Source: Nemertoderma westbladi | Lineage: Eukaryota > Animalia > Xenacoelomorpha | Length of the DNA: 32,644 bases | NCBI GenBank assembly: GCA_032718475.1 | Contig: JAUCBJ010006264.1 | Span: 1-32,644, forward strand | Reading direction: 5' to 3' | Shown here: piece by piece, positions 4,101 to 31,903 of the stretch | Layout: the number at the start of each line of letters is the position of its first letter | Position numbering within the stretch: position 1 is the first letter of the stretch | Notes under the pieces: generated by a model | The model's input: only the letters and a program-made list of their open reading frames with translations | The model's database searches: none | Told to the model about the DNA's origin: nothing | Position numbers and translations under genes: made by a program

Positions 4101-4101
4101 T

Positions 4102-4927: not shown

Positions 4928-4928
4928 A

Positions 4929-7316: not shown

Positions 7317-7738
7317 TAATTTTGTAATATAATAATTGTTTTTGTTTTAATTGCTTTAATAGGTAATAGATTTGGAAACCGAGTTGCTAGATTGGTCTGG
7401 TTTTGACCTATTTCGCACTTGATTTTACCTTTTACAAACTACTTCAGTCTAATACTGTTTGTGATTGGATAATGTCAATGTCAAAGTGTAACTAGATCCT
7501 TCCTGCAAATAAATTAGGTCAAAATAAACAATGTACACTTTGTTGTTGAAAATGTCTTGAAAATGTTCCTTATAAAATGTTCCAGAACAAGTTATTCTCA
7601 TTCTATAACGTTTTTTTATATTTTTGTATCTTTTGGATAGTGGCCTAGAACAAAATTATATGTTCTAGAACATTTTTTATAAAACCTAAAATATTTAGAA
7701 CATTTCAAATCTTTATAAATGAGCTATTTTAAAAATTA

Positions 7739-8782: not shown

Positions 8783-9268
8783 TAATGGATCATTGTGACG
8801 CCCTTAAGTCGGCTTGCCACTACCTTAAACAATATTGAAAATTGGGAGGGGTCATAGGGTGGTGGTGTTGGGTACCTAATGAGCTAGTAGATAGTATGAT
8901 AGAATGTAGATATAATGAACTAGACAGGTGAGCCATGGCCTACGTTGAGCATACCGAAGAGTCATTAATTTCTTCTAGAATAAGTTTTATTGAAACCAAA
9001 AGCTACGCATTGCATGTTAAATAACGTGGAATATATTATTCTACCATTCCCTCGATTCTTTATTAACCTATCTGCACTCGGTGAATAGAATATCTCAACC
9101 GAAAACTGTTGGTATCCTTGATGGTGGTGTTCATTTTCGAAGCGCCTTAAAAAATGTTTGAACGTGAAAGTAAACTTAATTCGAAATGTCTGTTTTAAAT
9201 TTTAATCTAGAACCAATCAATTGATATCTCTTATTTTTGATTTTAGACTATATTATTTTTATTTGTAG

Positions 9269-9676
9269 TCTGCCGATGGTGGAGTTGCAGCTAATTCCAT
9301 CACCATGGAAACGTATAATTTATGCGAATTCGCAAAGAGATACCATGTGCGAGGCGGCAGCGTGTACACCCGTTGCGAACACAACCGCGTGGTGGCCGAG
9401 AGTCTGAACCGAAGGGACGTCGCCTTGAACTGGCGGATGTTACAGATATATTACGGCAAGTCCCTCGTTGCAGTCTCAACCGACGTTGCAACGGTTGACA
9501 AGGCAACCACAGGAGACAGCCAATGGGAGAGCTCGCGTGTCCGGGTTGGACTCAGTGATCCGGTACCCAACAACGTAGAGACGTCGGATAACGACGAGTC
9601 AGAGGGGAGCGATCTGGAAGGGATGAATACCGGACGAGACGTTCCGATAGGCTACACAACGGAACCCTTGAACCAA
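9269..9676 (+). CDS. WDR24: WDR24 coding exon 3
   Basis: Acceptor TTTTTATTTGTAG|TCT at 9268/9269, in frame with ORF 9305. Peptide FAKRY...CEHNRVVAESLNRRDVALNWRML matches the WDR24 central CxHN motif. Donor CAA|GTGAGT at 9676/9677; 408 nt. Confidence 0.88.
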
Positions 9677-12581: not shown

Positions 12582-12585
12582 TAAT

Positions 12586-12835
12586 TTGGTTTAAATCAAT
12601 TGAATCTGTTGGTTCAACACAGTTGAATTGGTTGGTTCAACTGAGTTGAGTTGGTTGGTTTACGTCACTTGATTCCGTTGTTTAAACCCATTTGGGTCTG
12701 TAGGTTATACTGAATTCGGTTCAACACATTTGAGTTGGTTGGTTCTACTCAGTTGAATGAATAGGTTAATTCAAAGCAGTTGTTTTAGTTGGATAAACTC
12801 GGTTTGAGTCGGTTGATTCGATTCAGGTGGGTGAA
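12586..12835. repeat. Old degenerate ~23-bp tandem repeat, consensus TGGTTCAACTCAGTTGARTYGGT
   Basis: About 10 diverged units between array B and the exon 4 acceptor. Confidence 0.7.
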
Positions 12836-12874
12836 TGTGAAGGTTAATTTAACTTTAGTTTAATTTACCATCAG

Positions 12875-13111
12875 GGCGACTTTGTATGCGATCTGGCATT
12901 GGGTATGGATCTCACCTCGGTAACCAGACGACCCTACACCAGTTCCCAGTGGTCTAGAAGAGGTCCCAGTGATATCCTCTCTGCTGGCAGTATAGAGACT
13001 GAGGCCTTCCATAAACGGCACCAGTTGGACAGTCTAGCGGCGGCTTCCAGCCACGACGGTGGTGTCCTTAGTGATGACAAAGATTATCAGTCAGACGACA
13101 TCGATGCCGAT
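12875..13111 (+). CDS. WDR24: WDR24 coding exon 4
   Basis: Acceptor TTTACCATCAG|GGC at 12874/12875, in frame with ORF 12899. Peptide GDFVCD...IETEAFHKRHQL resembles the WDR24 EAFxxRHxI motif. Probable donor GAT|GTTAGT at 13111/13112 keeps phase 0; this 3' boundary is the least certain. Confidence 0.75.
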
Positions 13112-13371
13112 GTTAGTGTAAACAATGTTTATATATTTTATGTTAGAAGATATTTAGCTGTGATTCTATTCCAACCAATTTATATGTCGGTAAAGTCATT
13201 TTGAAGAATACAAATTAATACGGTGTGTACAAGTTTGTGCACATTGTCTATCCATTGTCCCTGTATAATCAAGTAAGGATGATACAGGGATAAGGTGTTT
13301 ACTCTGTGTTACAAGCACAATGTGATCACCTATAAATAAATAAATCAATTCGTGTGGTTTCCCTCCCGCAG

Positions 13372-13920
13372 GTATTCACCAGCCAGGTTCCGCACTCTGA
13401 TTTCTCGGTCTCCCGGGTGGTTCCAGAATGGGACCCGTCCCCTGTGTTCCAGACCATGTTACACAACTACGTGGACCGGGGCGACATACAGAACGCCGTA
13501 ACTGCCTTGCTCGTAGTCGGGGAACCCTTACTGAAACTAATAGAACCCGATCTCGTAGAATACTGGTTCTCAGAGTACATCGAACTCTTGTTTCGTTTCG
13601 AGTTGCACGTCGAGATGAACCTCGTTGTAACTTTGTGTCCGTTGGTGAGTGTGCAGACACTGAGTCAGGAGAACACATCACAGTCGGCGCAATGCGGTCT
13701 GTGCGTCCGACCGCTGACGCGATGTGGTTGGTACTGTGTCCATTGTAAGGCCCACACGAGTTTGTGCTCCGTCTGTAGACGTCCCGCTAGGGGTCTCTAC
13801 TCCTGGTGTCACGGCTGCGGTCACGGGGGTCACCTGAAACACATTAACGATTGGTTTGTTACCCGGGGCAACCGAGTGTGCGCTACCGGTTGTGGCCATC
13901 CTTGCGTGTTTGTCAGTTGA
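13372..13920 (+). CDS. WDR24: WDR24 terminal coding exon (helical region and C-terminal zinc finger/RING)
   Basis: Acceptor TTTCCCTCCCGCAG|GTA at 13371/13372. Peptide GDIQNAV...WFSEYIELLFRFEL...CGLC...CVHC...CSVC...WCHGCGHGGHLKH...CATGCGHPC, stop TGA at 13918-13920. The five exons total about 795 aa, the usual WDR24 size. Confidence 0.93.
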   Translation, partial: VFTSQVPHSDFSVSRVVPEWDPSPVFQTMLHNYVDRGDIQNAVTALLVVGEPLLKLIEPDLVEYWFSEYIELLFRFELHVEMNLVVTLCPLVSVQTLSQENTSQSAQCGLCVRPLTRCGWYCVHCKAHTSLCSVCRRPARGLYSWCHGCGHGGHLKHINDWFVTRGNRVCATGCGHPCVFVS

Positions 13921-14734: not shown

Positions 14735-16069
14735 ATGGGTTGGTTACATAAAGTCAATGGGTTGGTTACATAAGGTCAATGGGTTGGTTACATAAAGTCA
14801 ATGGGTTGGTTACATAAGGTCAATGGGTTGGTTACATAAGGTTAATGGGTTGGTTACATAAGGTCAATGGGATGGTTACATAAGGTCAATGGGTTGGTTA
14901 CATAAGGTCAATTGGTTGGTTACATAAGGTCTATGGGTTGGTTACATAAGGTCAATGGGTTGGTTACATAAGGTCAATGGGTTGGTTACACAAGGTCAAT
15001 GGGTTGGTTACATAAGGTCAATGGGTTGGTTACACAAGGTCAATGGGTTGGTTACATAAGGTCAATGGGTTGGTTACATAAAGTCAATGGGTTGGTTACA
15101 TAAGGTCAATGGGTTGGTTACATAAGGTCAATGGGTTGGTTACATAAGGTCAATGGGTTGGTTACATAAGCTCAATGGGTTGGTTACACAAGGTCAATGG
15201 GTTGGTTACATAAGGTCAATGGGTTGGTTACATAAAGTCAATGGGTTGGTTACATAAGGTCAATGGGTTGGTTACATAAGGTCAATGGGTTGGTTACATA
15301 AGGTCAATGGGTTGGTTACATAAGCTCAATGGGTTGGTTACACAAGGTCAATGGGTTGGTTACATAAGGTCAATGGGTTGATTACACAAGGTCAATGGGT
15401 TGGTTACATAAGGTCAATGGGTTGGTTACATAAGGTCAATGGGTTGGTTACATAAGGTCAATGGGTTGGTTACATAAGGTCAATGGGTTGGTTACATAAG
15501 GTCAATGGGTTGGTTACACAAGGTCAATGGGTTGGTTACATAAGGTCAATGGGTTGGTTACATAAGGTCAATGGGTTGGTTACATAAGGTCAATGGGATG
15601 GTTACATAAGGTCAATGGGTTGGTTACATAAGGTCAATTGGTTGGTTACATAAGGTCAATGGGTTGGTTACATAAGGTCAATGGGTTGGTTACATAAGGT
15701 CAATGGGTTGGTTACATAAGGTCAATGGGTTGGTTACACAAGGTCAATGGGATGGTTACATAAGGTCAATGGGTTGGTTACATAAGGTCAATGGGTTGGT
15801 TACATAAGGTCAATGGGTTGGTTACATAAGGTCAATGGGTTGGTTACATAAGGTCAATGGGTTGGTTACATAAGGTCAATGGGTTGGTTACACAAGGTCA
15901 ATGGGTTGGTTACATAAGGTCAATGGGTTGGTTACACAAGGTCAATGGGTTGGTTACATAAGGTCAATGGGTTGGTTACATAAGGACAATGGGTTGGTTA
16001 CATAAGGTAAATGGGATGGTTACATAAGGTCAATGGGTTGGTTACATAAGGTTAATGGTTTGGTTACAC
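14735..16069. repeat. 22-bp minisatellite GTCAATGGGTTGGTTACATAAG, about 60 copies
   Basis: Highly homogeneous direct tandem repeat in the intergenic region. Confidence 0.97.
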
Positions 16070-16884: not shown

Positions 16885-17655
16885 TGCGGTGGGGGGAAGG
16901 GGGGTGGGGAGTGCAGCCCCCCCCCCCCCGCCTCTCGTGGGGGGAAGGGGAGTGGGGAGTGCAGCCCCCCCGCCTCTGGTGGGGGAAGGGGGGTGAGGAG
17001 TGCAGCCCCCTCCCGCGCCTGTTGTGTTGGGGGAAGGGGGGTGGGGAGGGCAGCCCCCCTCCGCCTGTGGTGGGGGGAAGGGGGTGGGGAGTGCAGCTCC
17101 CCCCGCCTCTGGTGGGGGGAAGGGGGGTGGGGAGTGCAGCCCCCCCCGCCTCTGGTGGGGGGAAGGGGGGTGGGGAGTGCAGCCCCCCCCCCCCCGCCTC
17201 TGGTGGGGGGAAGGGGAGTGGGGAGTGCAGCCCCCCCGCCTCTGGTGGGGGAAGGGGGGTGAGGAGTGCAGCCCCCTCCCGCGCCTGTTGTGTTGGGGGA
17301 AGGGGGGTGGGGAGGGCAGCCCCCCTCCGCCTGTGGTGGGGGGAAGGGGGTGGGGAGTGCAGCCCCCCCCCCCCGCCTCTGGTGGGGGGAAGGGGGGTGG
17401 GGAGTGCAGCCCCCCCCGCCTCTGGTGGGGGGAAGGGGGGTGGGGAGTGCAGCCCCCTCCCGCGCCTGTTGTGTTGGGGGAAGGGGGGTGGGGAGGGCAG
17501 CCCCCCTCCGCCTGTGGTGGGGGGAAGGGGGTGGGGAGTGCAGCCCCCCCCCCCCCCCGCCTCTGGTGGGGGGAAGGGGGGTGGGGAGTGCAGCCCCCCC
17601 CCGCCTCTGGTGGGGGGAAGGGGGGTGGGGAGTGCAGCCCCCTCCCCCCGCCTCG
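16885..17655. repeat. GC-rich ~42-45-bp satellite GCCTCTGGTG(G)nAA(G)nTGGGGAGTGCAG(C)n with G-quadruplex/hairpin potential
   Basis: Roughly 17-18 units of alternating G-runs and C-runs, with three subunit variants forming higher-order blocks. Ends next to TACGCCTATG (17657-17666). Confidence 0.92.
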
Positions 17656-18982
17656 TACGCCTATGAGTGTAGATTAGGAGAAAATACTTCAGGATTGATT
17701 TTGTTTTGCAACTCTTTTAGTTACAGGGTCATTATTAGTATCCTATGATATGATCAAAATAATTCAAAATATACACCATTAGGCAACAATCGGCGCACCA
17801 TTGGAAATTAAGAATATTATTATTTATTTATTTATTCCAACGCCAAAATAAAGCAGATAAGTTTATCTTCCAAATAAGTAGCTTCATTTTTACATGTCGC
17901 ATGTCAGGGTGGGTAGGCTAAATTTGATATGGAAAGAGCTACATTTTTTCATCACTTTTTTTTAATTCCGCGTAGCGAGACCTCTAGTTGTTGTTGTTGG
18001 TGTTATTGTTAATAATTAATTATATATTAGCAATTATTGCCTGTCTGTTGGAGATCGTTTTGTTGCATAATATTTAGCTATAAGATAGTGGTAACGCGAA
18101 TACGATACATGGCACACCAAACAAGGAGTGCATGCATTGTAAAGACAAACTTGGACCTACTCCATAGATAATTAGTAATGTTAATTATATCTGCTAACTA
18201 TTATTAATATAATTAATATGCAAGGTGAAGGTGTTATTTAATATCGGGACACCGTTGCCTAACTAATAAAGTAATGAATGATTCATTTGTCAGCTCTAGT
18301 CCAATCAGATTCAATAAGATTTATTGGCAATGCAATGCCACAAATTATAGTAGATCGAATGGCAACACAATTTCATTATGTTTATACTTCATGACTCCAA
18401 TTAAATACACTGCAACGTCGCACAGCACAATATCTTAACTGTTCCAATCAGAGATTGCCTGGAGCAGACCTCTAATCTGAATATCCACACCCCGCGCGAG
18501 CGCTACCAACCACCTTTAATTCCCTTTAATTCCAAGAATTATTTTGGACCTATAATCGTTGAATACAAGTCCTTCAGCTAGGGATATTTTTTGCTTCGAG
18601 GGTAATTATGTCATCTACGTTTCAAATCCCTTACAATATTAAACGATCAGCGAGAGATTGTTTTCCGCCAACTTTTCATAACAATTTTGTTTAGTGTTCC
18701 AGTACTTGATGAGATAATATAAATGTTTTAAATTTAATTTCAATGATTCCGTTGAAAAAAGATTCAAATATGTTTTAAATTATACATAACGTTTAATATT
18801 ATAATCTGTAATTTTCTCGTTTTTATTACCTTTTATTTTAGGGATAATGTTTTATTTTTAAAGTAATGAAAATATTTTCAACAAATGGGGTCGTTCTGTG
18901 CTGTGCAAATGGGCAACAATAGTGGAATTTACAATTGATGATAATCAGGCTCTTGATATAACTTGAGCTATTCATGATTATA

Positions 18983-18990: not shown

Positions 18991-19081
18991 TTTACAGAAC
19001 AATTTTATTTGACTTCCATATTGTGAATGGATATGACACTAATAATGTAATCGAGGTAGTTTGATACTCGATATCACCACA

Positions 19082-22000
19082 ATGACTTCTGTACATCCGT
19101 TTGTCGAATCTGGGACTTCCCTTAGCGACTCTTCCATGCCGAAACTGCCATTACCTAAACCACCAACACCATGGTGGTCAATAGTTGGAATGGTGATAGC
19201 CGCGTCAGTGGGTGCAGCATCTGTGGCTGGGATTGTAGTCATGACGGTTGGTTATAAGGGTGAAGTGGACACAGACATTAAAAAGATTAAAGATCAGTTG
19301 AGCGAATATGGGAATAAATTTGCGCCTGTGGAACAGTTAACTGACACTGCAGAAGGATTCGATTTGCAGTTGAAAAATAATGGTGAAACAATTCTTATTC
19401 AACTAAAAGATCAGGAGGAAACGCTTTCCAGTAAACTTACCTCATTTGCTGGACAGATTGCAAAGATTGAGGACGGGTTTGCTACCCAGTTCAAAGACCA
19501 GAGTACCGATTTTGGAAATAAACTCAGAAACGAAACAGATGGTTACACATCACAATTGCAGACTCAAGAAGATTCACTTGTAAAGCTGGTGCAAACTCAG
19601 GGAGATTCTTTCAATGGCCAGTTGAAAGAACAAGCTCATTCCCTAATAACTCTAATTGAAAATCAAGGAGACTCATTAGATGCCCTCATTAAAGATCAGG
19701 GTGATTCACTTACTTATCAGATTCGAACTCAAGAATTATTGTATGCTAAATTTAAAAACCAAAGTGATTTATATGAAAATCAGTTTGAAATCCAGAGCGA
19801 TACATTTAACACCCAGTTGAAAGATCTAGGTGATTCCTTACTAGACAAAATGCAAGATCAAGGCAACTTTGATTCAGAGTTGAAAGATCTTGTTGATTCG
19901 CTTACGACACAGATTCAAGCTCAAGGTACTTCATTTGATGCCCAGTTGAAAGATCAAGGTACATCATTTGATACCGAATTGAAAGATCAAGGCGACTCAT
20001 TTGATATCCAGTTGAAAGATCTTGGTGATTCACTTACAAATTCGTTTGATACCCAGTTAAAAGACCAAAGTGATACACTTACAACACAGATTCAAGCTCA
20101 AGGTACTTCATTTGATACCCAGTTGAAAGATCTTGGTGATTCACTTACTACCTCATTTGATACCCAGTTGAAAGATCAAGGGGATTCGCTTACGACTCAG
20201 ATTCAAGCTCAAGGTACTTCATTTGATACCCAGTTGAAAGATCAAGGCGATTCCCTAACAGCTCAGATTCAAGCTCAAGGGGATTCACTTATGACTCAGA
20301 TTTTAGCTCAAGGTACATCATTCGATACCCAACTAAAAGATCTTGGCGATTCACTTACTACCTCATTTGATACCCAGTTGAAAGATCAAGGGGATTCGCT
20401 TACGAATCAGATTCAAGCTCAAGGTACTTCATTTGATGCCCAGTTGAAAGATCAAGGTACATCATTTGATACCCAATTGAAAGATCAAGGCGACTCTTTT
20501 GATACCCAGTTGATAGATCTTGGTGATTCACTTACTACTTCATTTGATACCCAGTTGAAAGATCAAGGGGATTCGCTTACGAATCAGATTCAAGCTCAAG
20601 GTACTTCATTTGATGCCCAGTTGAAAGATCAAGGTACATCATTTGATACCCGATTGAAAGACCAAGGCGACTCATTTGATATCCAGTTGAAAGATCTTGG
20701 TGATTCACTTACAAGTTCGTTTGATACCCAGTTAAAAGACCAAAGTGATACACTTACAACACAGATTCAAGCTCAAGGTACTTCATTTGACACCCAGTTG
20801 AAAGATCTTGGTGATTCACTTACTACCTCATTTGATACCCAGTTGAAAGATCAAGGGGATTCGCTTACGACTCAGATTCAAGCTCAAGGTACTTCATTTG
20901 ATGCCCAGTTGAAAGATCAAGGTACATCATTTGATACCCAATTGAAAGATCAAGGCGACTCATTTGATATCCAGTTGAAAGATCTTGGTGATTCACTTAC
21001 AAATTCGTTTGATACCCAGTTAAAAGACCAAAGTGATACACTTACAACACAGATTCAAGCTCAAGGTACTTCATTTGATACCCAGTTGAAAGATCAAGGC
21101 GATTTCCTAACAGCTCAGATTCAAGCTCAAGGTACTTCATTTGATACCCAGTTGAAAGATCTTGGTGATTCACTTACTACCTCATTTGATACCCAGTTGA
21201 AAGATCAAGGGGATTCGCTTACGACTCAGATTCAAGCTCAAGGTACTTCATTTGATGCCCAGTTGAAAGATCAAGGTACATCATTTGATACCCAATTGAA
21301 AGACCAAGGAGACTCATTTGATATCCAGTTGAAAGATCTTGGTGATTCACTTACAAATTCGTTTGATACCCAGTTAAAAGACCAAAGTGATACACTTACA
21401 ACACAGATTCAAGCTCAAGGTACTTCATTTGATACCCAGTTGAAAGATCAAGGCGATTCCCTAACAGCTCAGATTCAAGCTCAAGGTACTTCATTTGATA
21501 CCCAGTTGAAAGATCTTGGTGATTCACTTACAAATTTGTTTGATACCCAGTTAAAAGACCAAAGTGATACACTTACAACACAGATTCAAGCTCAAGGTAC
21601 TTCATTTGATACCCAGTTGAAAGATCAAGGCGATTCCCTAACAGCTCAGATTCAAGCTCAAGGGGATTCACTTATGACTCAGATTTTAGCTCAAGGTACA
21701 TCGTTCGATACCCAACTAAAAGATCTTGGCGATTCACTTACTACCTCATTTGATACCCAGTTGAAAGATCAAGGGGATTCGCTTACGACTCAGATTCAAG
21801 TTCAAGGTACTTCATTTGATGCCCAGTTGAAAGATCAAGGTACATCATTTGATACCCAATTGAAAGATCAAGGCGACTCATTTGATACCCAGTTGATAGA
21901 TCTTGGTGATTCACTTACTACCTCATTTGATACCCAGTTGAAAGATCAAGGGGATTCGCTTACGACTCAGATTCAAGCTCAAGGTACTTCATTTGATACC

Positions 22001-25000
22001 CAGTTGAAAGATCAAGGCGATTCCCTAACAGCTCAGATTCAAGCTCAAGGGGATTCACTTATGACTCAGATTTTAGCTCAAGGTACATCATTCGATACCC
22101 AACTAAAAGATCTTGGCGATTCACTTACTACCTCATTTGATACCCAGTTGAAAGATCAAGGGGATTCGCTTACGACTCAGATTCAAGTTCAAGGTACTTT
22201 ATTTGATGCCCAGTTGAAAGATCAAGGTACATCATTTGATACCCAATTGAAAGATCAAGGCGACTCATTTGATATCCAGTTGAAAGATCTTGGTGATTCA
22301 CTTACAAATTCGTTTGATACCCAGTTAAAAGACCAAAGTGATACACTTACAACACAGATTCAAGCTCAAGGTACTTCATTTGATACCCAGTTGAAAGATC
22401 TTGGTGATTCACTTACTACCTCATTTGATACCCAGTTGAAAGATCAAGGGGATTCGCTTACGACTCAGATTCAAGCTCAAGGTACTTCATTTGATACCCA
22501 GTTGAAAGATCAAGGCGATTCCCTAACAGCTCAGATTCAAGCTCAAGGGGATTCACTTATGACTCAGATTTTAGCTCAAGGTACATCATTCGATACTCAA
22601 CTAAAAGATCTTGGCGATTCACTTACTACCTCATTTGATACCCAGTTGAAAGATCAAGGGGATTCGCTTACGACTCAGATTCAAGTTCAAGGTACTTCAT
22701 TTGATGCCCAGTTGAAAGATCAAGGTACATCATTTGATACCCAATTGAAAGATCAAGGCGACTCATTTGATATCCAGTTGAAAGATCTTGGTGATTCACT
22801 TACAAATTCGTTTGATACCCAGTTAAAAGACCAAAGTGATACACTTACAACACAGATTCAAGCTCAAGGTACTTCATTTGATACCCAGTTGAAAGATCTT
22901 GGTGATTCACTTACTACCTCATTTGATACCCAGTTGAAAGATCAAGGGGATTTGCTTACGACTCAGATTCAAGCTCAAGGTACTTCATTTGATGCCCAGT
23001 TGAAAGATCAAGGTACATCATTTGATACCCAATTGAAAGATCAAGGCGACTCATTTGATATCCAGTTGAAAGATCTTGGTGATTCACTTAGAAATTCGTT
23101 TGATACCCAGTTAAAAGACCAAAGTGATACACTTACAACACAGATTCAAGCTCAAGGTACTTCATTTGATACCCAGTTGAAAGATCTTGGTGATTCACTT
23201 ACTACCTCATTTGATACCCAGTTGAAAGATCAAGGGGATTCGCTTACGACTCAGATTCAAGCTCAAGGTACTTCATTTGATGCCCAGTTGAAAGATCAAG
23301 GTACATCATTTGATACCCAATTGAAAGATCAAGGCGACTCATTTCATATCCAGTTAAAAGATCTTGGTGATTCACTTACAAATTCGTTTGATACCCAGTT
23401 AAAAGACCAAAGTGATACACTTACAACACAGATTCAAGCTCAAGGTACTTCATTTGATACCCAGTTGAAAGATCAAGGCGATTCCCTAACAGCTCAGATT
23501 CAAGCTCAAGGTACTTCATTTGATACCCAGTTGAAAGATCTTGGCGATTCACTTACTACCTCATTTGATACCCAGTTGAAAGATCAAGGGGATTCGCTTA
23601 CGACTCAGATTCAAGTTCAAGGTACTTCATTTGATGCCCAGTTGAAAGATCAAGGCGATTCCCTAACAGCTCAGATTCAAGCTCAAGGTACTTCATTTGA
23701 TACCCAGTTGAAAGATCTTGGTGATTCACTTACAAATTCGTTTGATACCCAGTTAAAAGACCAAAGTGATACACTTACAACACAGATTCAAGCTCAAGGT
23801 ACTTCATTTGATACCCAGTTGAAAGATCTTGGTGATTCACTTACTACCTCATTTGATACCCAGTTGAAAGATCAAGGGGATTCGCTTACGACTCAGATTC
23901 AAGCTCAAGGTACTTCATTTGATGCCCAGTTGAAAGATCAAGGTACATCATTTGATACCCAATTGAAAGATCAAGGCAACTTATTTGATATCCAGTTGAA
24001 AGATCTTGGTGATTCACTTACAAATTCGTTTGATACCCAGTTAAAAGACCAAAGTGATACACTTACAACACAGATTCAAGCTCAAGGTACTTCCTTTGAT
24101 ACCCAGTTGAAAGATCAAGGCGATTCCCTAACAGCTCAGATTCAAGCTCAAGGTACTTCATTTGATACCCAGTTGAAAGATCTTGGTGATTCACTTACTA
24201 CCTCATTTGATACCCAGTTGAAAGATCAAGGGGATTCGCTTACGACTCAGATTCAAGCTCAAGGTACTTCATTTGATGCCCAGTTGAAAGATCAAGGTAC
24301 ATCATTTGATACCCAATTGAAAGATCAAGGCGACTCATTTGATACCCAGTTGATAGATCTTGGTGATTCACTTACTACCTCATTTGATACCCAGTTGAAA
24401 GATCAAGGGGATTCGCTTACGACTCAGATTCAAGCTCAAGGTACTTCATTTGATACCCAGTTGAAAGATCAAGGCGATTCCCTAACAGCTCAGATTCAAG
24501 CTCAAGGGGATTCACTTATGACTCAGATTTTAGCTCAAGGTACATCATTCGATACCCAACTAAAAGATCTTGGCGATTCACTTACTACCTCATTTGATAC
24601 CCAGTTGAAAGATCAAGGGGATTCGTTTACGACTCAGATTCAAGTTCAAGGTACTTCATTTGATGCCCAGTTGAAAGATCAAGGTACATCATTTGATACC
24701 CAATTGAAAGATCAAGGCGATTCATTTGATATCCAGTTGAAAGATCTTGGTGATTCACTTTCAAATTCGTTTGATACCCAGTTAAAAGACCAAAGTGATA
24801 CACTTACAACACAGATTCAAGCTCAAGGTACTTCATTTGATACCCAGTTGAAAGATCTTGGTGATTCACTTACTACCTCATTTGATACCCAGTTGAAAGA
24901 TCAAGGGGATTTGCTTACGACTCAGATTCAAGCTCAAGGTACTTCATTTGATGCCCAGTTGAAAGATCAAGGTACATCATTTGATACCCAATTGAAAGAT

Positions 25001-28000
25001 CAAGGCGACTCATTTGATATCCAGTTGAAAGATCTTGGTGATTCACTTACAAATTCGTTTGATACCCAGTTAAAAGACCAAAGTGATACACTTACAACAC
25101 AGATTCAAGCTCAAGGTACTTCATTTGATACCCAGTTGAAAGATCTTGGTGATTCACTTACTACCTCATTTGATACCCAGTTGAAAGATCAAGGGGATTC
25201 GCTTACGACTCAGATTCAAGCTCAAGGTACTTCATTTGATGCCCAGTTGAAAGATCAAGGTACATCATTTGATACCCAATTGAAAGATCAAGGCGACTCA
25301 TTTGATATCCAGTTAAAAGATCTTGGTGATTCACTTACAAATTCGTTTGATACCCAGTTAAAAGACCAAAGTGATACACTTACAACACAGATTCAAGCTC
25401 AAGGTACTTCATTTGATACCCAGTTGAAAGATCAAGGCGATTCCCTAACAGCTCAGATTCAAGCTCAAGGTACTTCATTTGATACCCAGTTGAAAGATCT
25501 TGGTGATTCACTTACTACCTCATTTGATACCCAGTTGAAAGATCAAGGGGATTCGCTTACGACTCAGATTCAAGCTCAAGGTACTTCATTTGATGCCCAG
25601 TTGAAAGATCAAGGTACATCATTTGATACCCAATTGAAAGACCAAGGAGACTCATTTGATATCCAGTTGAAAGATCTCGGTGATTCACTTACAAATTCGT
25701 TTGATACCCAGTTAAAAGACCAAAGTGATACACTTACAACACAGATTCAAGCTCAAGGTACTTCATTTGATACCCAGTTGAAAGATCAAGGCGATTCCCT
25801 AACAGCTCAGATTCAAGCTCAAGGTACTTCATTTGATACCCAGTTGAAAGATCTTGGTGATTCACGTACAAATTTGTTTGATACCCAGTTAAAAGACCAA
25901 AGTGATACACTTACAACACAGATTCAAGCTCAAGGTACTTCATTTGATACCCAGTTGAAAGATCAAGGCGATTCCCTAACAGCTCAGATTCAAGCTCAAG
26001 GGGATTCACTTATGACTCAGATTTTAGCTCAAGGTACATCGTTCGATACCCAACTAAAAGATCTTGGCGATTCACTTACTACCTCATTTGATACCCAGTT
26101 GAAAGATCAAGGGGATTCGCTTACGACTCAGATTCAAGTTCAAGGTACTTTATTTGATGCCCAGTTGAAAGATCAAGGTACATCATTTGATACCCAATTG
26201 AAAGATCAAGGCGACTCATTTGATACCCAGTTGATAGATCTTGGTGATTCACTTACAAATTCGTTTGATACCCAGTTAAAAGACCAAAGTGATACACTTA
26301 CAACACAGATTCAAGCTCAAGGTACTTCATTTGATACCCAGTTGAAAGATCTTGGTGATTCACTTACTACCTCATTTGATACCCAGTTGAAAGATCAAGG
26401 GGATTTGCTTACGACTCAGATTCAAGCTCAAGGTACTTCATTTGATGCCCAGTTGAAAGATCAAGGTACATCATTTGATACCCAATTGAAAGATCAAGGC
26501 GACTCATTTGATATCCAGTTGAAAGATCTTGGTGATTCACTTACAAATTCGTTTGATACCCAGTTAAAAGACCAAAGTGATACACTTACAACACAGATTC
26601 AAGCTCAAGGTACTTCATTTGATACCCAGTTGAAAGATCTTGGTGATTCACTTACTACCTCATTTGATACCCAGTTGAAAGATCAAGGGGATTCGCTTAC
26701 GACTCAGATTCAAGCTCAAGGTACTTCATTTGATGCCCAGTTGAAAGATCAAGGTACATCATTTGATACCCAATTGAAAGATCAAGGCGACTCCTTTGAT
26801 ATCCAGTTGAAAGATCTTGGTGAATCACTTACAAATTCGTTTGATACCCAGTTAAAAGACCAAAGTGATACACTTACAACACAGATTCAAGCTCAAGGTA
26901 CTTCATTTGATACCCAGTTGAAAGATCAAGGCGATTCCCTAACAGCTCAGATTCAAGCTCAAGGTACTTCATTTGATACCCAGTTGAAAGATCTTGGTGA
27001 TTCACTTACTACCTCATTTGATACCCAGTTGAAAGATCAAGGGGATTCGCTTACGACTCAGATTCAAGCTCAAGGTACTTCATTTGATGCCCAGTTGAAA
27101 GATCAAGGTACATCATTTGATACCCAATTGAAAGACCAAGGAGACTCATTTGATATCCAGTTGAAAGATCTTGGTGATTCACTTACAAATTCGTTTGATA
27201 CCCAGTTAAAAGACCAAAGTGATACACTTACAACACAGATTCAAGCTCAAGGTACTTCATTTGATACCCAGTTGAAAGATCAAGGCGATTCCCTAACAGC
27301 TCAGATTCAAGCTCAAGGTACTTCATTTGATACCCAGTTGAAAGATCTTGGTGATTCACTTACAAATTTGTTTGATACCCAGTTAAAAGACCAAAGTGAT
27401 ACACTTACAACACAGATTCAAGCTCAAGGTACTTCATTTGATACCCAGTTGAAAGATCAAGGCGATTCCCTAACAGCTCAGATTCAAGCTCAAGGGGATT
27501 CACTTATGACTCAGATTTTAGCTCAAGGTACATCGTTCGATACCCAACTAAAAGATCTTGGCGATTCACTTACTACCTCATTTGATACCCAGTTGAAAGA
27601 TCAAGGCGATTCCCTAACAGCTCAGATTCAAGCTCAAGGGGATTCACTTAACACTCAGATTTTAGCTCAAGGTACATCGTTCGACACCCAACTAAAAGAT
27701 CTTGGCGATTCACTTACTACCTCATTTGATACCCAGTTGAAAGATCAAGGGGATTCGCTTACGACTCAGATTCAAGTTCAAGGTACTTTATTTGATGCCC
27801 AGTTGAAAGATCAAGGTACATCATTTGATACCCAATTGAAAGATCAAGGCGACTCATTTGATACCCAGTTGATAGATCTTGGTGATTCACTTACAAATTC
27901 GTTTGATACCCAGTTAAAAGACCAAAGTGATACACTTACAACACAGATTCAAGCTCAAGGTACTTCATTTGATACCCAGTTGAAAGATCTTGATGATTCA

Positions 28001-31000
28001 CTTACTACCTCATTTGATACCCAGTTGAAAGATCAAGGGGATTCGCTTACGACTCAGATTCAAGCTCAAGGTACTTCATTTGATGCCCAGTTGAAAGATC
28101 AAGGTACATCATTTGATACCCAATTGAAAGATCAAGGCGACTCATTTGATATCCAGTTGAAAGATCTTGGTGAATCACTTACAAATTCGTTTGATACCCA
28201 GTTAAAAGACCAAAGTGATACACTTACAACACAGATTCAAGCTCAAGGTACTTCATTTGATACCCAGTTGAAAGATCAAGGCGATTCCCTAACAGCTCAG
28301 ATTCAAGCTCAAGGTACTTCATTTGATACCCAGTTGAAAGATCTTGGTGATTCACTTACAAATTTGTTTGATACCCAGTTAAAAGACCAAAGTGATACAC
28401 TTACAACACAGATTCAAGCTCAAGGTACTTCATTTGTTACCCAGTTGAAAGATCAAGGCGATTCCCTAACAGCTCAGATTCAAGCTCAAGGGGATTCACT
28501 TATGACTCAGATTTTAGCTCAAGGTACATCATTCGATACCCAACTAAAAGATCTTGGCGATTCACTTACTACCTCATTTGATACCCAGTTGAAAGATCAA
28601 GGGGATTTGCTTACGACTCAGATTCAAGCTCAAGGTACTTCATTTGATGCCCAGTTGAAAGATCAAGGTACATCATTCGATACCCAATTGAAAGATCAAG
28701 GCGACTCATTTGATATCCAGTTGAAAGATCTTGGTGATTCACTTACAAATTCGTTTGATACCCAGTTAAATGACCAAAGTGATACACTTACAACACAGAT
28801 TCAAGCTCAAGGTACTTCATTTAATACCCAGTTGAACGATCAAGGTGATTCCCTAACAGCTCAGATTCAAGCTCAAGGGGATTCACTTATGACTCAGATT
28901 TTAGCTCAAGGTACATCATTCGATACCCAACTAAAAGATCTTGGCGATTCACTTACTACTTCATTTGATACCCAGTTGAAAGATCAAGGGGATTCGCTTA
29001 CGACTCAGATTCAAGCTCAAGGTACTTCATTTGATGCCCAGTTGAAAGATCAAGGTACATCTTTTAATACCCAATTGAAAGATCAAGGCGACTCATTTGA
29101 TACCCAGTTGATAGATCTTGGTGATTCACTTACAAATTCGTTTGATACCCAGTTAAAAGACCAAAGTGATACACTTACAACACAGATTCAAGCTCAAGGT
29201 ACTTCATTTGATACCCAGTTGAAAGATCTTGGGGATTCACTTACTACCTCATTTGATACCCAGTTGAAAGATCAAGGGGATTCGCTTACGACTCAGATTC
29301 AAACTCAAGGTACTTCATTTGATGCCCAGTTGAAAGATCAAGGTACATCATTTGATACCCAATTGAAAGAACAAGGCGACTCATTTGATACCCAGTTGAA
29401 AGATCTTGGTGATTCACTTACAAGTTTGTTTGATACCCAGTTAAAAGACCAAAGTGATACACTTACAACACAGATTCAAGCTCAAGGTACATCATTTGAT
29501 ACCCAGTTGAAAGATCAAGGCGATTCCCTAACAGCTCAGATTCAAGCTCAAGGGGATTCACTTATGACTCAGATTTTAGCTCAAGGTACATCATTCGATA
29601 CCCAACTAAAAGATCTTGGCGATTCACTTACTACCTCATTTGATACCCAGTTGAAAGATCAAGGGGATTCGCTTACGACTCAGATTCAAGCTCAAGGTAC
29701 TTCATTTGATGCCCAGTTGAAAGATCAAGGTACATCATTTGATACCCAATTGAAAGATCAAGGCGACTCATTTGATACCCAGTTGAAAGATCTTGGTGAT
29801 TCACTTACAAGTTTGTTTGATACCCAGTTAAAAGACCAAAGTGATACACTTACAACACAGATTCAAGCTCAAGGTACTTCATTTGATACCCAGTTAAAAG
29901 ACCAAAGTGATACACTTACAACACAGATTCAAGCTCAAGGTACTTCATTTGATACCCAGTTGAAAGATCAAGGCGTCTCATTTGATACCCAGTTGAAAGA
30001 TCTTGGTGATTCACTGACAAATTTGTTTGATACCCAGTTAAATGACCAAAGTGATACACTTACAACCCAGATTCAAGCTCAAGGTACTTCATTTGATACC
30101 CAGTTGAAAGATCAAGGCGATTCCCTAACAGCTCAGATTCAAGCTCAAGGGGATTCCCTTATGACTCAGATTTTAGCTCAAGGTACATCATTCGATACCC
30201 AGCTAATAGATCTTGGCGATTCACTTACTACCTCATTTGATACCCAGTTGAAAGATCAAGGGGATTCGCTTACGACTCAGATTCAAGTTCAAGGTACTTC
30301 ATTTGATGCCCAGTTGAAAGATCAAGGTATATCATTTGATACCCAATTGAAAGATCAAGGCGACTCATTTGATACCCAGTTGAAAGATCTTGGTGATTCA
30401 CTTACAAATTCGTTTGATACCCAGTTAAAAGATCAAAGTGATACACTTACAACACAGATTCAAGCTCAAGGTACTTCATTTGATACCCAATTGAAGGACC
30501 AAGGTGATTCACTTACGACACAGATTGACGCTGTCGCTAAAGATTTGATCATTCTTGACAGCGAATTACGCGATTACATAAATGAAATGCTTCAATTGTA
30601 TTTACAAATAAACCAGACTTGTGGTGTTCTTACTGTGGATAATAGTATTGCTATTTATCCTAATCAGATGTATGGTTTGCCTTCCACGGGTTTTATTCGT
30701 TGTGACACTACGGCTCCCGGTGGGCCATGGTTGGTAATACAACGACGGGTTGATGGTAGTGAAGATTTCTACCTCGGTTGGGAAAGCTATCGATCGGGAT
30801 TCGGAAATATTGAGGCGAACTTTTGGATTGGACTGGATAAGATTCATCAACTGAGTCTTGGTGGTGTCATATTGCGGGTTGATCTGTGGTGGAATGGAGA
30901 GCACAAGTTCGCCAGATATTCATCATTTAGCATTAGCGACGCTTCCACTAACTTTATCCTCTATATATCTGGTTATTCAGGGGACGCCGGTGACTCGATT

Positions 31001-31237
31001 GTTTACGATGTTGAACTTCTTAATTTAAACGAACAACCATTTTCTACTAAAGATAATGATAATGATTCACATGCTGGCCAATGCGCGGTCGGGCAAACTG
31101 GTGCATGGTGGTTCAAATCCTGTCATATGTCCAATCTCAATGGAGTGTATGGTGAGCCAGATGGAAGGGGTCCGAGGTGGGCAACTTTTACTGGTTTGGA
31201 GCCAGCTGATAAAGTCGAGATGAAAATCAAAGTCTAG
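19082..31237 (+). CDS. Giant single-exon fibrinogen-related-domain (FReD/FBG) protein, about 4051 aa: N-terminal signal anchor, 11/15-residue repeat stalk, C-terminal FReD (FIBCD1/angiopoietin/ficolin-like architecture)
   Basis: Uninterrupted ORF; the first ATG is 19082 (ACAATG) although the track starts at a TTG. Hydrophobic segment WWSIVGMVIAASVGAASVAGIVVMTVGY at 19172-19255. C-terminal motifs CD..GGPWLVIQRRVDGSEDF, W..Y..GFG, FWIGLDKIHQL, YSGDAGDS, FSTKDNDND, GAWWFKSCHMSNLNG and EMKIK are diagnostic of FReD. Confidence 0.9.
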   Translation: MTSVHPFVESGTSLSDSSMPKLPLPKPPTPWWSIVGMVIAASVGAASVAGIVVMTVGYKGEVDTDIKKIKDQLSEYGNKFAPVEQLTDTAEGFDLQLKNNGETILIQLKDQEETLSSKLTSFAGQIAKIEDGFATQFKDQSTDFGNKLRNETDGYTSQLQTQEDSLVKLVQTQGDSFNGQLKEQAHSLITLIENQGDSLDALIKDQGDSLTYQIRTQELLYAKFKNQSDLYENQFEIQSDTFNTQLKDLGDSLLDKMQDQGNFDSELKDLVDSLTTQIQAQGTSFDAQLKDQGTSFDTELKDQGDSFDIQLKDLGDSLTNSFDTQLKDQSDTLTTQIQAQGTSFDTQLKDLGDSLTTSFDTQLKDQGDSLTTQIQAQGTSFDTQLKDQGDSLTAQIQAQGDSLMTQILAQGTSFDTQLKDLGDSLTTSFDTQLKDQGDSLTNQIQAQGTSFDAQLKDQGTSFDTQLKDQGDSFDTQLIDLGDSLTTSFDTQLKDQGDSLTNQIQAQGTSFDAQLKDQGTSFDTRLKDQGDSFDIQLKDLGDSLTSSFDTQLKDQSDTLTTQIQAQGTSFDTQLKDLGDSLTTSFDTQLKDQGDSLTTQIQAQGTSFDAQLKDQGTSFDTQLKDQGDSFDIQLKDLGDSLTNSFDTQLKDQSDTLTTQIQAQGTSFDTQLKDQGDFLTAQIQAQGTSFDTQLKDLGDSLTTSFDTQLKDQGDSLTTQIQAQGTSFDAQLKDQGTSFDTQLKDQGDSFDIQLKDLGDSLTNSFDTQLKDQSDTLTTQIQAQGTSFDTQLKDQGDSLTAQIQAQGTSFDTQLKDLGDSLTNLFDTQLKDQSDTLTTQIQAQGTSFDTQLKDQGDSLTAQIQAQGDSLMTQILAQGTSFDTQLKDLGDSLTTSFDTQLKDQGDSLTTQIQVQGTSFDAQLKDQGTSFDTQLKDQGDSFDTQLIDLGDSLTTSFDTQLKDQGDSLTTQIQAQGTSFDTQLKDQGDSLTAQIQAQGDSLMTQILAQGTSFDTQLKDLGDSLTTSFDTQLKDQGDSLTTQIQVQGTLFDAQLKDQGTSFDTQLKDQGDSFDIQLKDLGDSLTNSFDTQLKDQSDTLTTQIQAQGTSFDTQLKDLGDSLTTSFDTQLKDQGDSLTTQIQAQGTSFDTQLKDQGDSLTAQIQAQGDSLMTQILAQGTSFDTQLKDLGDSLTTSFDTQLKDQGDSLTTQIQVQGTSFDAQLKDQGTSFDTQLKDQGDSFDIQLKDLGDSLTNSFDTQLKDQSDTLTTQIQAQGTSFDTQLKDLGDSLTTSFDTQLKDQGDLLTTQIQAQGTSFDAQLKDQGTSFDTQLKDQGDSFDIQLKDLGDSLRNSFDTQLKDQSDTLTTQIQAQGTSFDTQLKDLGDSLTTSFDTQLKDQGDSLTTQIQAQGTSFDAQLKDQGTSFDTQLKDQGDSFHIQLKDLGDSLTNSFDTQLKDQSDTLTTQIQAQGTSFDTQLKDQGDSLTAQIQAQGTSFDTQLKDLGDSLTTSFDTQLKDQGDSLTTQIQVQGTSFDAQLKDQGDSLTAQIQAQGTSFDTQLKDLGDSLTNSFDTQLKDQSDTLTTQIQAQGTSFDTQLKDLGDSLTTSFDTQLKDQGDSLTTQIQAQGTSFDAQLKDQGTSFDTQLKDQGNLFDIQLKDLGDSLTNSFDTQLKDQSDTLTTQIQAQGTSFDTQLKDQGDSLTAQIQAQGTSFDTQLKDLGDSLTTSFDTQLKDQGDSLTTQIQAQGTSFDAQLKDQGTSFDTQLKDQGDSFDTQLIDLGDSLTTSFDTQLKDQGDSLTTQIQAQGTSFDTQLKDQGDSLTAQIQAQGDSLMTQILAQGTSFDTQLKDLGDSLTTSFDTQLKDQGDSFTTQIQVQGTSFDAQLKDQGTSFDTQLKDQGDSFDIQLKDLGDSLSNSFDTQLKDQSDTLTTQIQAQGTSFDTQLKDLGDSLTTSFDTQLKDQGDLLTTQIQAQGTSFDAQLKDQGTSFDTQLKDQGDSFDIQLKDLGDSLTNSFDTQLKDQSDTLTTQIQAQGTSFDTQLKDLGDSLTTSFDTQLKDQGDSLTTQIQAQGTSFDAQLKDQGTSFDTQLKDQGDSFDIQLKDLGDSLTNSFDTQLKDQSDTLTTQIQAQGTSFDTQLKDQGDSLTAQIQAQGTSFDTQLKDLGDSLTTSFDTQLKDQGDSLTTQIQAQGTSFDAQLKDQGTSFDTQLKDQGDSFDIQLKDLGDSLTNSFDTQLKDQSDTLTTQIQAQGTSFDTQLKDQGDSLTAQIQAQGTSFDTQLKDLGDSRTNLFDTQLKDQSDTLTTQIQAQGTSFDTQLKDQGDSLTAQIQAQGDSLMTQILAQGTSFDTQLKDLGDSLTTSFDTQLKDQGDSLTTQIQVQGTLFDAQLKDQGTSFDTQLKDQGDSFDTQLIDLGDSLTNSFDTQLKDQSDTLTTQIQAQGTSFDTQLKDLGDSLTTSFDTQLKDQGDLLTTQIQAQGTSFDAQLKDQGTSFDTQLKDQGDSFDIQLKDLGDSLTNSFDTQLKDQSDTLTTQIQAQGTSFDTQLKDLGDSLTTSFDTQLKDQGDSLTTQIQAQGTSFDAQLKDQGTSFDTQLKDQGDSFDIQLKDLGESLTNSFDTQLKDQSDTLTTQIQAQGTSFDTQLKDQGDSLTAQIQAQGTSFDTQLKDLGDSLTTSFDTQLKDQGDSLTTQIQAQGTSFDAQLKDQGTSFDTQLKDQGDSFDIQLKDLGDSLTNSFDTQLKDQSDTLTTQIQAQGTSFDTQLKDQGDSLTAQIQAQGTSFDTQLKDLGDSLTNLFDTQLKDQSDTLTTQIQAQGTSFDTQLKDQGDSLTAQIQAQGDSLMTQILAQGTSFDTQLKDLGDSLTTSFDTQLKDQGDSLTAQIQAQGDSLNTQILAQGTSFDTQLKDLGDSLTTSFDTQLKDQGDSLTTQIQVQGTLFDAQLKDQGTSFDTQLKDQGDSFDTQLIDLGDSLTNSFDTQLKDQSDTLTTQIQAQGTSFDTQLKDLDDSLTTSFDTQLKDQGDSLTTQIQAQGTSFDAQLKDQGTSFDTQLKDQGDSFDIQLKDLGESLTNSFDTQLKDQSDTLTTQIQAQGTSFDTQLKDQGDSLTAQIQAQGTSFDTQLKDLGDSLTNLFDTQLKDQSDTLTTQIQAQGTSFVTQLKDQGDSLTAQIQAQGDSLMTQILAQGTSFDTQLKDLGDSLTTSFDTQLKDQGDLLTTQIQAQGTSFDAQLKDQGTSFDTQLKDQGDSFDIQLKDLGDSLTNSFDTQLNDQSDTLTTQIQAQGTSFNTQLNDQGDSLTAQIQAQGDSLMTQILAQGTSFDTQLKDLGDSLTTSFDTQLKDQGDSLTTQIQAQGTSFDAQLKDQGTSFNTQLKDQGDSFDTQLIDLGDSLTNSFDTQLKDQSDTLTTQIQAQGTSFDTQLKDLGDSLTTSFDTQLKDQGDSLTTQIQTQGTSFDAQLKDQGTSFDTQLKEQGDSFDTQLKDLGDSLTSLFDTQLKDQSDTLTTQIQAQGTSFDTQLKDQGDSLTAQIQAQGDSLMTQILAQGTSFDTQLKDLGDSLTTSFDTQLKDQGDSLTTQIQAQGTSFDAQLKDQGTSFDTQLKDQGDSFDTQLKDLGDSLTSLFDTQLKDQSDTLTTQIQAQGTSFDTQLKDQSDTLTTQIQAQGTSFDTQLKDQGVSFDTQLKDLGDSLTNLFDTQLNDQSDTLTTQIQAQGTSFDTQLKDQGDSLTAQIQAQGDSLMTQILAQGTSFDTQLIDLGDSLTTSFDTQLKDQGDSLTTQIQVQGTSFDAQLKDQGISFDTQLKDQGDSFDTQLKDLGDSLTNSFDTQLKDQSDTLTTQIQAQGTSFDTQLKDQGDSLTTQIDAVAKDLIILDSELRDYINEMLQLYLQINQTCGVLTVDNSIAIYPNQMYGLPSTGFIRCDTTAPGGPWLVIQRRVDGSEDFYLGWESYRSGFGNIEANFWIGLDKIHQLSLGGVILRVDLWWNGEHKFARYSSFSISDASTNFILYISGYSGDAGDSIVYDVELLNLNEQPFSTKDNDNDSHAGQCAVGQTGAWWFKSCHMSNLNGVYGEPDGRGPRWATFTGLEPADKVEMKIKV
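19860..30526 (+). repeat. Coding tandem repeat of 33-bp and 45-bp modules (SFDTQLKDQGD, SLTTQIQAQGT, SFDTQLKDLGDSLTT and variants)
   Basis: About 10.7 kb of in-frame modules with no stop or frameshift. Diverged copies extend upstream to about 19580. Confidence 0.97.
30614..31234 (+). other. Fibrinogen C-terminal globular domain (FReD) coding region
   Basis: Four canonical cysteines (TCG, RCD, QCA, SCH), Ca-binding DNDND loop and NLNG motif. Confidence 0.93.
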
Positions 31238-31523
31238 AATCCGCAGTAAAGCTAACGCTTGTCCAAAAAGTGACCAACTTGCCTTATTAAACGACATCTT
31301 TTTTGGCACTCACCATTCCTTTACCACAGTAGTGACAAGGCTCAGGCTTTAAAAGCCTGTACTGATGTTCATCAATTATGACGAGTGTAGATCTTGTTGT
31401 TTTAGTTGGGAAGCGAGTTTAGGCTCTTGTAAAATATTTCCTAAATTACATACACGGTATATTTCCACAGTATGGGGAATTTCGTTCTGTTTTCAGGACA
31501 TCCCGCGGCATATATATATATAC

Positions 31524-31529
31524 AATAAA
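31524..31529 (+). promoter_or_regulatory. Candidate polyadenylation signal of the FReD gene
   Basis: First AATAAA downstream of the stop codon, about 290 nt away; an ATTAAA also occurs near 31286. Confidence 0.3.
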
Positions 31530-31903
31530 TAGCACGAGCGCATCACGTGAGATAATATATGTTACGTATCATATCTAAAGGATAATAGCAAAATATGAGT
31601 ATATTTCCGCTGCTCCATTTATTGCCTTTATAACGAGATCAAAAATACATATTAGAGATCTTAAAGAGAACTAAAAGAAATCTCCCTAAGCCGTGTTAAG
31701 ATTTGAAATCCTCACTAAACTCTGCTCGATAGATGACATAATGTAGAAAAATAAAAAATCTGAACTTTTGACCCGGAAGAGGGGAATTCCAACCCAAAGC
31801 ACCTATATATAATTTGTATTAAGCCATGAGTTTGGCACCCAAAGCACAAAAAAAGTGTACAGTATATAAATAAGTTATTAATAATAATTATAAAAGAAAG
31901 TTT

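Follow-up and report, generated by a model that had tools for sequence, protein, structure and literature searches.

How could an animal genome come to hold an unbroken open frame of 4,051 codons in which a predicted membrane anchor is joined to a recognition domain through thousands of residues of nearly uniform repeat, and what would such a chain look like on the cell that makes it? This question is raised by a locus of the xenacoelomorph Nemertoderma westbladi (assembly GCA_032718475.1, contig JAUCBJ010006264.1), of which we analysed positions 1 to 32,644 of the forward strand, hereafter the window. The frame had been picked out in an earlier annotation made from the letters alone (the sequence-only reading) as a giant membrane-anchored protein ending in a fibrinogen-related domain (FReD), and the coordinates given there, 19082-31237, are correct. 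The gene is intact and protein-coding, and its giant, FReD-bearing product is under purifying selection. We favour, with a probability of about one half, the interpretation that the product is a predicted type II membrane protein which would hold a cluster of FReD heads up to ~0.56 micrometre away from its cell, the stalk being a coil of hendecads and pentadecads with a slight right-handed twist. The features on which the argument depends are the following:

19082..31237, plus strand: uninterrupted open reading frame of 4,051 amino acids (aa), from frame and composition analysis
19082..19180, plus strand: Pro-rich tail at the N-terminus (aa 1-33), cytoplasmic by prediction
19181..19252, plus strand: hydrophobic segment, aa 34-57, predicted type II signal anchor, from hydropathy and flank charge
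19253..19924, plus strand: degenerate membrane-proximal stalk, aa 58-281, period ~3.62, from sequence periodicity
19925..30502, plus strand: uniform coding array, aa 282-3807 (3,526 aa), from repeat parsing
30503..30619, plus strand: neck, aa 3808-3846, an amphipathic helix without repeats that prolongs the helix of the final units, from AlphaFold2
30620..31234, plus strand: FReD, aa 3847-4051, from PF00147 and the model
31286..31755, plus strand: candidate polyadenylation signals, ATTAAA at 31286 and AATAAA at 31524 and 31750, by pattern match only

The first issue is whether the array is coding at all. Frame +2 is free of stops from 19046 to 31237, its earliest ATG lies at 19082 with an A at -3, and the frame from there, in which no N bases occur, specifies a chain of 441 kDa with an isoelectric point of 4.05. 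Over the array the other five frames contain 170-354 stops each and the coding frame none, which is far beyond chance, and all of the 147 spacings between array markers are divisible by 3, compared with 10/81, 0/45 and 0/54 in three non-coding arrays of the window. The 33 point changes that are private to single places in the array comprise 16 synonymous and 17 non-synonymous substitutions with no stops, against an expected synonymous share of 0.22-0.28, and the ratio of non-synonymous to synonymous rates (dN/dS) is 0.29-0.53 under the nine settings of this private-change test (P 0.0005-0.02). A first estimate of dN/dS (28/58 synonymous) was set aside because recombinant units may be counted in it, and hence the stricter private-change test is relied upon here. 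The array therefore evolves as protein under purifying selection of moderate strength. This speaks against a plain intron, and so against the concern, raised in the sequence-only reading, that the repeat might simply be spliced out.

The second issue is whether the array is real at its assembled length. The DNA is present in three sequencing runs (X1, X2 and X3), which come from two samples and two studies. The assembly may itself derive from X1 and X2, so that the depth check may not be independent of it, and the matching of reads covers the flanks of the array only. X1 contigs are identical to the window over the whole 2,151-base 5' flank and the whole 1,501-base 3' flank, X2 contigs over the whole 5' flank and 1,403 bases of the 3' flank, and the flank contigs stop at 19936 and 30460, the points at which the de Bruijn graph of the assembly breaks. 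Two repeat contigs of X2 have depths of 491.6 and 579.1 versus 24.3 on the 5' flank (ratios of 20.2 and 23.8), and the copies predicted for them from the assembly are 19.6 and 22.5. Depth in X2 is uneven, and the value of 4.3 on the 3' flank would point, if to anything, to a higher copy number. Depth is even on the flanks in X1 (29.4 and 25.2), where a summed bin depth of 712.7 corresponds, by rough arithmetic, to ~48-56 copy equivalents; in the assembly, the three most frequent types of junction add up to ~64. Moreover, the longest exact repeat inside the array is 669 bp and 1,343 of its 10,640 31-mers are unique, unlike the pattern of assembler duplication. The array is not an inflation of the assembly: the depth of the repeat contigs fits the assembled copy number, and the much shorter array that had been considered possible disagrees with the 20-fold and 24-fold depths in X2.

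The join between anchor and FReD does rest on the assembly, because no single record spans the array. It could accordingly be imagined that the locus is unexpressed or a young pseudogene, or that anchor and FReD stem from different copies which the assembly fused, all the more as other FReD loci occur in the same runs and the branch leading to this FReD is long (0.69 substitutions per site). We consider this highly improbable in view of the 12,153 bases without stop or frameshift, the signal of selection, the intact fold with 16/16 invariant alignment columns present (by construction of the alignment report), and the flank contigs that end exactly where the graph predicts for a single locus. 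X3 was examined as possible RNA evidence and not counted, because it is recorded as 'DNA?', includes a 61-kb contig and has very uneven depth; it covers parts of 19098-19804 and of 30643-31694 and nothing in the upstream 1 kb, a pattern that would also be compatible with an RNA library. Three repeat-junction variants at window positions 19803-19837 (depth ~15-22) are found in X1 and are missing from the window, and may point to a second allele.

At the N-terminal end, the expected short Pro-rich tail and single hydrophobic segment are both present: six Pro lie within residues 1-30, and residues 34-57 reach a KD19 value of 2.24, the next best in the protein being 0.82. The flanking charge is +2 before the segment and 0 after it, from which a type II single-pass topology with the N-terminus inside is predicted, as in the sequence-only reading; this call is made from hydropathy and flank charge only. 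Small residues recur within the segment at small-xxx-small spacing (G36, A40, G44 and S42, A46, G50), and the tail, aa 1-33, contains no Tyr-based sorting motif. A search for N-terminal homologues returned 0 of 7,824 candidates, and the best value in an Atlas comparison of the N-terminal 420 aa was 0.77, which is a lead only.

Since the hydrophobic segment ends in small residues, the ectodomain might be released by cleavage near the end of this Ala/Gly-rich stretch, or by shedding, and serve as the precursor of a secreted fibre, a glue or a matrix, in which the FReD would be a knob for polymerisation or cross-binding; the closest solved heads are indeed tenascin FBGs, which bind proteins. Yet the segment begins at residue 34 and is 24 residues long, values more like those of a signal anchor than of a signal peptide, and no RxxR site lies near the membrane. 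Dreissena tpf1 would be a byssal counterpart of comparable size, intronless and with a predicted coil of ~600 nm, but it is Asn-rich and has no reported FReD (PMC10691215). Release is, in our judgment, quite unlikely.

Between anchor and head, the sequence-only reading had placed about 3,550 residues of helical-type repeats, and this holds well: the uniform array of 3,526 aa consists of 236 hendecads and 62 pentadecads and is helical in AlphaFold2 models. The hendecad consensus is G-D/T-S-F/L-D/T-T-Q-L/I-K/Q-D/A-Q/L, in which two positions (F/L and L/I) are nearly always large hydrophobic residues, followed in this respect by the Q/L and then the G position; core positions are near-invariant and surface positions vary. 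The unit before each of the 62 pentadecads ends in Leu and not in Gln. Units are combined into about five recurring higher-order modules, including 15+11+11+11+11 (n=25) and 15+11+11 (n=12). The segment aa 58-281, which carries N-glycosylation sequons at residues 150 and 226, shows a degenerate form of the same 11/15 pattern that grades into the uniform repeat, and it can be seen as a degenerate older version, so that a shorter coil would have come first and the uniform array would be a recent expansion.

The hydrophobic spectrum of the array peaks at 3.689 residues (power 103.6, versus 0.11 at 3.5), within the range of 3.67-3.75 that characterizes hydrophobic positions a, d, h and l of hendecads and pentadecads, and the 3.69 periodicity is strict and in phase through the entire array. 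The idea of a coiled-coil stalk hence stands in so far as helical repeats are predicted, and needs correction in that the period is not the heptad one of 3.5 assumed for FIBCD1 and angiopoietins. A rise of 0.148-0.15 nm per residue is usual for a coil, and the computed length is 522-529 nm for the uniform array and 560-568 nm for the whole stalk; the half-micrometre estimate made earlier is therefore apt, provided that the coil is continuous: the uniform array would measure ~0.52 micrometre, and 0.56-0.57 is reached once the degenerate ends are counted. The core is formed by positions a, d and h in hendecads and a, d, h and l in pentadecads, the twist is right-handed above 3.63, slightly so for hendecads and fully for pentadecads, and large core residues demand higher oligomers (PMC9858780). 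The stalk is accordingly predicted, from its periodicity, to be a hendecad/pentadecad coil of slightly right-handed twist. With a 56-sequence alignment, AlphaFold2 gave the last repeats and the neck as one helix (model residues 4-92) with a predicted local distance difference test (pLDDT) of about 85-93 in most blocks. From a single sequence the repeats were helical with a pLDDT of ~66-78, a predicted template modelling score (pTM) of 0.30 and fold-backs. A trimer prediction for residues 3660-3846 scored 0.06, the mark being 0.32, with controls not folded.

Several families resemble the repeat superficially and were rejected as its identity. The Pfam model of apolipoproteins A1/A4/E (PF01442) scores 345 bits against a cut-off of 90, a value that is the sum of 29 repeats and arises because a periodicity of 11 residues is common to both; in the PDB, the match to ApoA-IV has an E value of 0.007 only. 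Exchangeable apolipoproteins have 22-mers punctuated by Pro, a broad lipid-binding face and a basic interface, whereas here there is no Pro across residues 83-3859, large hydrophobic residues make up 22.5% and the repeat is strongly acidic. Baculo_PEP_C, DUF4709 and other Pfam matches are effects of periodicity or composition. Among metagenomes, 0 of 39 pattern matches were confirmed and 0 matches were found to the DNA pattern. Viral scans gave no match, leaving a viral origin unsupported. In the prokaryote scan 2 of 20 passed; judged from their sequences, one is a DNA polymerase III-type protein and the other is chain-length-determinant-like. They were taken to be chance matches, and horizontal transfer is likewise unsupported.

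In the head, PF00147 matches with 168.5 bits (E 2.6e-49, cut-off 22) and the fold is intact in the model, so the terminal FReD is as had been described. All four Cys of the protein fall within it, in two conserved pairs (3847, 3874, 4001 and 4014), and in AlphaFold2 with the 56-sequence alignment pLDDT exceeds 90 except for a 20-residue N-terminal stretch. Foldseek returned the tenascin-C FBG (E 1.7e-24) and FIBCD1 (E 6.3e-24) with probability 1.00 and a template modelling (TM) score of 0.84 to 8FNB by target length; the FReD is 35% identical to that of FIBCD1, less than to the heads of tenascins and ficolins (38-42%). In the Atlas comparison, the C-terminal 468 aa reach 0.86-0.87 to plain FReD clusters, again a lead only. 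The acidic loop is retained as D3993/D3995, and so is C4014-H4015. Other contigs (~2.2 kb and 587 bp) match the FReD stretch 30695-30756 with 11-12 differences, and further FReD genes are therefore likely in this genome.

How would these parts work together? On the reading that we favour, one anchor would fix the chain with its N-terminus inside, and helical repeats are predicted to run unbroken into the head. Three or four chains might wind in parallel: a dimer would be excluded because the large core residues leave no room, and trimers or tetramers are suggested also because the FReDs of ficolin and FIBCD1 act in these states. Divalent cations could screen the acidic surface of the stalk, which by analogy with the necks of DC-SIGN and DC-SIGNR or the stalks of bacterial adhesins may serve as a spacer and avidity scaffold, and the ligand of the head would be a glycan or a protein, though not the classic N-acetyl one. 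Immune sensing, adhesion, particle capture and fibre formation, as proposed in the sequence-only reading, would be candidate roles. The recent gain in length would have come from unequal crossing-over of a few modules of 26-70 residues within an older, shorter coiled-coil FReD gene. In its fullest form, the proposal is of a 441-kDa chain on the cell surface with an unbroken right-handed coil of ~3,790 residues, heads with a non-canonical pocket more than 0.5 micrometre out and a reach set by a coding minisatellite in steps of 11 or 15 residues, an animal counterpart of bacterial fibrous adhesins; so complete a version is put forward tentatively, for it is distinctly less probable than the general reading.

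Quite a few observations weigh against this reading. The repeat is a poor helix former, with 16.5% Asp, 15.5% Thr, 9.9% Ser and 7.5% Gly; its net charge is -11 per 100 residues; and 22.5% is a low share of large hydrophobic residues. With such a composition (Ser plus Thr reach 25.4%) and a single-sequence model of moderate confidence, the same full-length anchored protein could instead carry a flexible acidic polyelectrolyte, O-glycosylated or Ca-binding as in a mucin-like coat or biomineral matrix, with helix formed only locally and a reach far below half a micrometre. Mucins typically contain Pro, however, and none occurs over 3,776 residues here; the strict in-phase period of 3.69 and the near-invariant core beside a variable surface also tell against it, and we regard this alternative as unlikely. 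Furthermore, a dN/dS of 0.3-0.5 is only moderate, and the absence of stops from the private changes does not, taken alone, reach significance (P 0.10-0.22). The searches made in metagenomes, viruses, prokaryotes and proteins found no homologue of the repeat or of the N-terminus, so that conservation of length cannot be shown. In the head, Q4005 replaces Tyr405 of FIBCD1, and the loop of Tyr431 is four residues shorter and without an aromatic, the pocket being mapped by offset via primate ficolin-2 and not via human FIBCD1 itself. Cys414, His415, Tyr405 and Tyr431 form the S1 acetyl pocket of FIBCD1 (PMC10825690), and the loss of its tyrosines weakens the assignment as a lectin.

The remaining objections concern length, and are best appreciated from the neighbourhood of the gene. 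Upstream on the plus strand, at ~1349-13920, lies a gene for WDR24 of GATOR2 with few introns (E 7e-63 to human WDR24), two of which open with tandem copies of the exon end and splice donor:

2745-7014, plus strand: WDR24 intron array of 32/28-bp units with 105 donor-like matches
9636-12581, plus strand: WDR24 intron array of 43/37-bp units with 57 donor-like matches

These arrays resemble the 'mirage' type of intron known from amphioxus (PMC3087553). Their size of 3-4 kb implies that the length of the FReD gene may also reflect a genome that amplifies repeats and not selection for reach. In addition, splice-like sites occur in the coding array, donor-like ones 71+44 times and acceptor-like ones 21 times, always in phase 1, and in-frame shortening is hence possible. 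The dominant products could then be shorter: cryptic in-frame splicing would yield a ladder of stalks of different length, and the length in the genome would be a tolerated by-product of tandem amplification instead of a selected ruler. The sites are phase-matched (donor-like AAG/GTACTT 71 times and TTG/GTGATT 44 times, acceptor-like TTCCCTAACAG/ 21 times), the WDR24 introns show how freely kilobase arrays arise here, an analogue in pipefish is annotated with isoforms of 453-798 aa, and the X1 junction variants hint at another allele. Conversely, the donor-like sites lack G at +5, splice-like sites can arise once by chance in a unit and then multiply with it, and the synonymous excess and preserved frame throughout the array are expected if it is translated at least sometimes. 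Such a ladder as the main output seems to us rather unlikely.

Other repeats of the region are a 22-bp satellite of ~60 copies with 95% matches (14735-16068) and a 43-bp/266-bp repeat rich in G/C runs (16888-17647), both between WDR24 and the FReD gene, which is itself flanked by short dispersed repeats (17958-18013 and 31665-31727) with a summed contig depth of ~2,000 in X1. In the FReD gene the third codon positions have a GC content of 0.27-0.37, versus 0.45-0.72 in three WDR24 exons.

If the rod does form, as in the type II reading that we prefer, the size range of receptor stalks in animals would rise about eightfold for a FReD-type family, and a natural near-uniform fibre of hendecads and pentadecads would be available, a geometry that in the literature accessible to us is called largely unexplored and hard to model. 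The modular repeat could also make stalk length usable as a molecular ruler for recognition at the cell surface and as a template for long right-handed fibres. If no rod forms, the locus is still a clear case of an in-frame coding array within a genome that amplifies repeats freely.

How, then, does this protein compare with known systems? The homologue sets consisted of proteins of 395-2,000 aa (120 of 205 matches; in another search 150 of 11,644). Among the matches listed, 60 of 283 proteins have an N-terminal stretch poor in Cys and Pro of more than 150 residues, the longest being of 487 and 484 residues, and the best FReD matches are FREP-like proteins with 43-48% identity, those named being from Elysia and Plakobranchus. 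A search for giant homologues (2,228-7,090 aa, FReD region) scored 0 of 486 and is uninformative, having missed even tenascin-X, which presumably qualifies. Tenascins have EGF-like and FNIII repeats before their FBG, and neither was found in the Pfam scan, so this identity was rejected. The 487-residue stretch belongs to XP_068507981 of the Gulf pipefish Syngnathus scovelli, which likewise has an N-tail, a membrane segment, a helical stalk of tandem repeats and a FReD, but in 750 aa, with a heptad period of 3.5 and an unrelated repeat sequence. Its isoforms of 429-798 aa are annotated as uncharacterized or FIBCD1-like, and the literature search found no paper on this protein. The view that no protein of such architecture had been described must thus be qualified, since the pipefish has the layout at 750 aa; it holds for scale, the longest comparable stalk among the matches listed being of 487 residues. 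In the full-text literature accessible, which did not extend to supplementary tables, no protein combining an anchor, a giant coil and a FReD was found.

FIBCD1 (PDB 4M7F), with which the sequence-only reading had compared the protein, shares the short cytoplasmic tail, one transmembrane helix, a coiled-coil ectodomain and the C-terminal FReD (PMC10825690). The comparison is sound for this type II layout and fails for the ligand pocket (Q4005 and the shortened loop); moreover, the present stalk is acidic and thousands of residues longer, and the polycationic region that FIBCD1 has between coil and FReD (PMC10825690) is lacking, the neck having 1 Lys and 1 Arg in 39 residues. With the pocket tyrosines and the basic region missing, the protein is not a member of FIBCD1. 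Gastropod FREPs also have a coiled-coil interceding region before the FReD, the best-scoring FREP-like heads share the short C-terminal loop and the GPxW motif, and the stalks of several such proteins have a period of about 3.6-3.7, the values for a number of gastropod ones being 3.66-3.68, as in hendecads, and not 3.5; these stalks reach ~480 aa among the matches listed, while the interceding region in Biomphalaria is of at most ~320 aa (PMC7588048). FREPs are defined as secreted proteins with a signal peptide and one or two N-terminal domains of the immunoglobulin superfamily (PMC7588048), and this identity was rejected because the Pfam scan found no Ig family, all Cys lie in the FReD and the hydrophobic segment is at 34-57. 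The grouping of its FReD with FREP FBG domains is weak: a 55-member clade has a FastTree value of 0.947 in a tree of 177 sequences (from 266 proteins, chosen by coverage), a sample enriched for FREPs by the stalk-containing query, and in a 49-sequence subset SH-aLRT is 67-77, with the FReD on its long branch of 0.69 substitutions per site. In summary, the protein is a variant of the anchor-coil-FReD design that is not FIBCD1, FREP, tenascin or apolipoprotein.

Beyond FReD proteins, DC-SIGN and DC-SIGNR similarly present membrane lectin heads on a coiled-coil oligomer of tandem repeats in variable number, but the head is a C-type lectin on ~7 heptad-type units of 23 residues (37 Å each) and they are not homologous (PMC5275740). 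Closer in geometry are the adhesin Saa of Shiga toxin-producing Escherichia coli, with stalk repeats of 15+11(+11) and half-polar cores (PMC13580157), and tetrabrachion, a surface stalk with 11-residue repeats in a right-handed tetramer (PMC5744192). Both are prokaryotic, with other heads and anchors, the tetrabrachion stalk measures 70 nm, and the scans found no sequence relationship of either to the giant FReD protein. In sheer size, the counterparts are giantin, the coil of which has 3,056-3,238 residues and ~0.5 micrometre but is cytoplasmic, anchored C-terminally and without FReD (PMC5082667), and Dreissena tpf1, an intronless product of 4,068 aa and 440 kDa with a predicted trimeric or tetrameric coil of ~600 nm, reported as the largest known, which differs in being a secreted Asn-rich fibre precursor with no reported FReD (PMC10691215). 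If the full rod forms, the Nemertoderma stalk may be the longest membrane-anchored extracellular coiled coil found in the literature accessible to our search; at a predicted ~0.56 micrometre it would exceed giantin and stay just under tpf1, among the longest coiled coils described.

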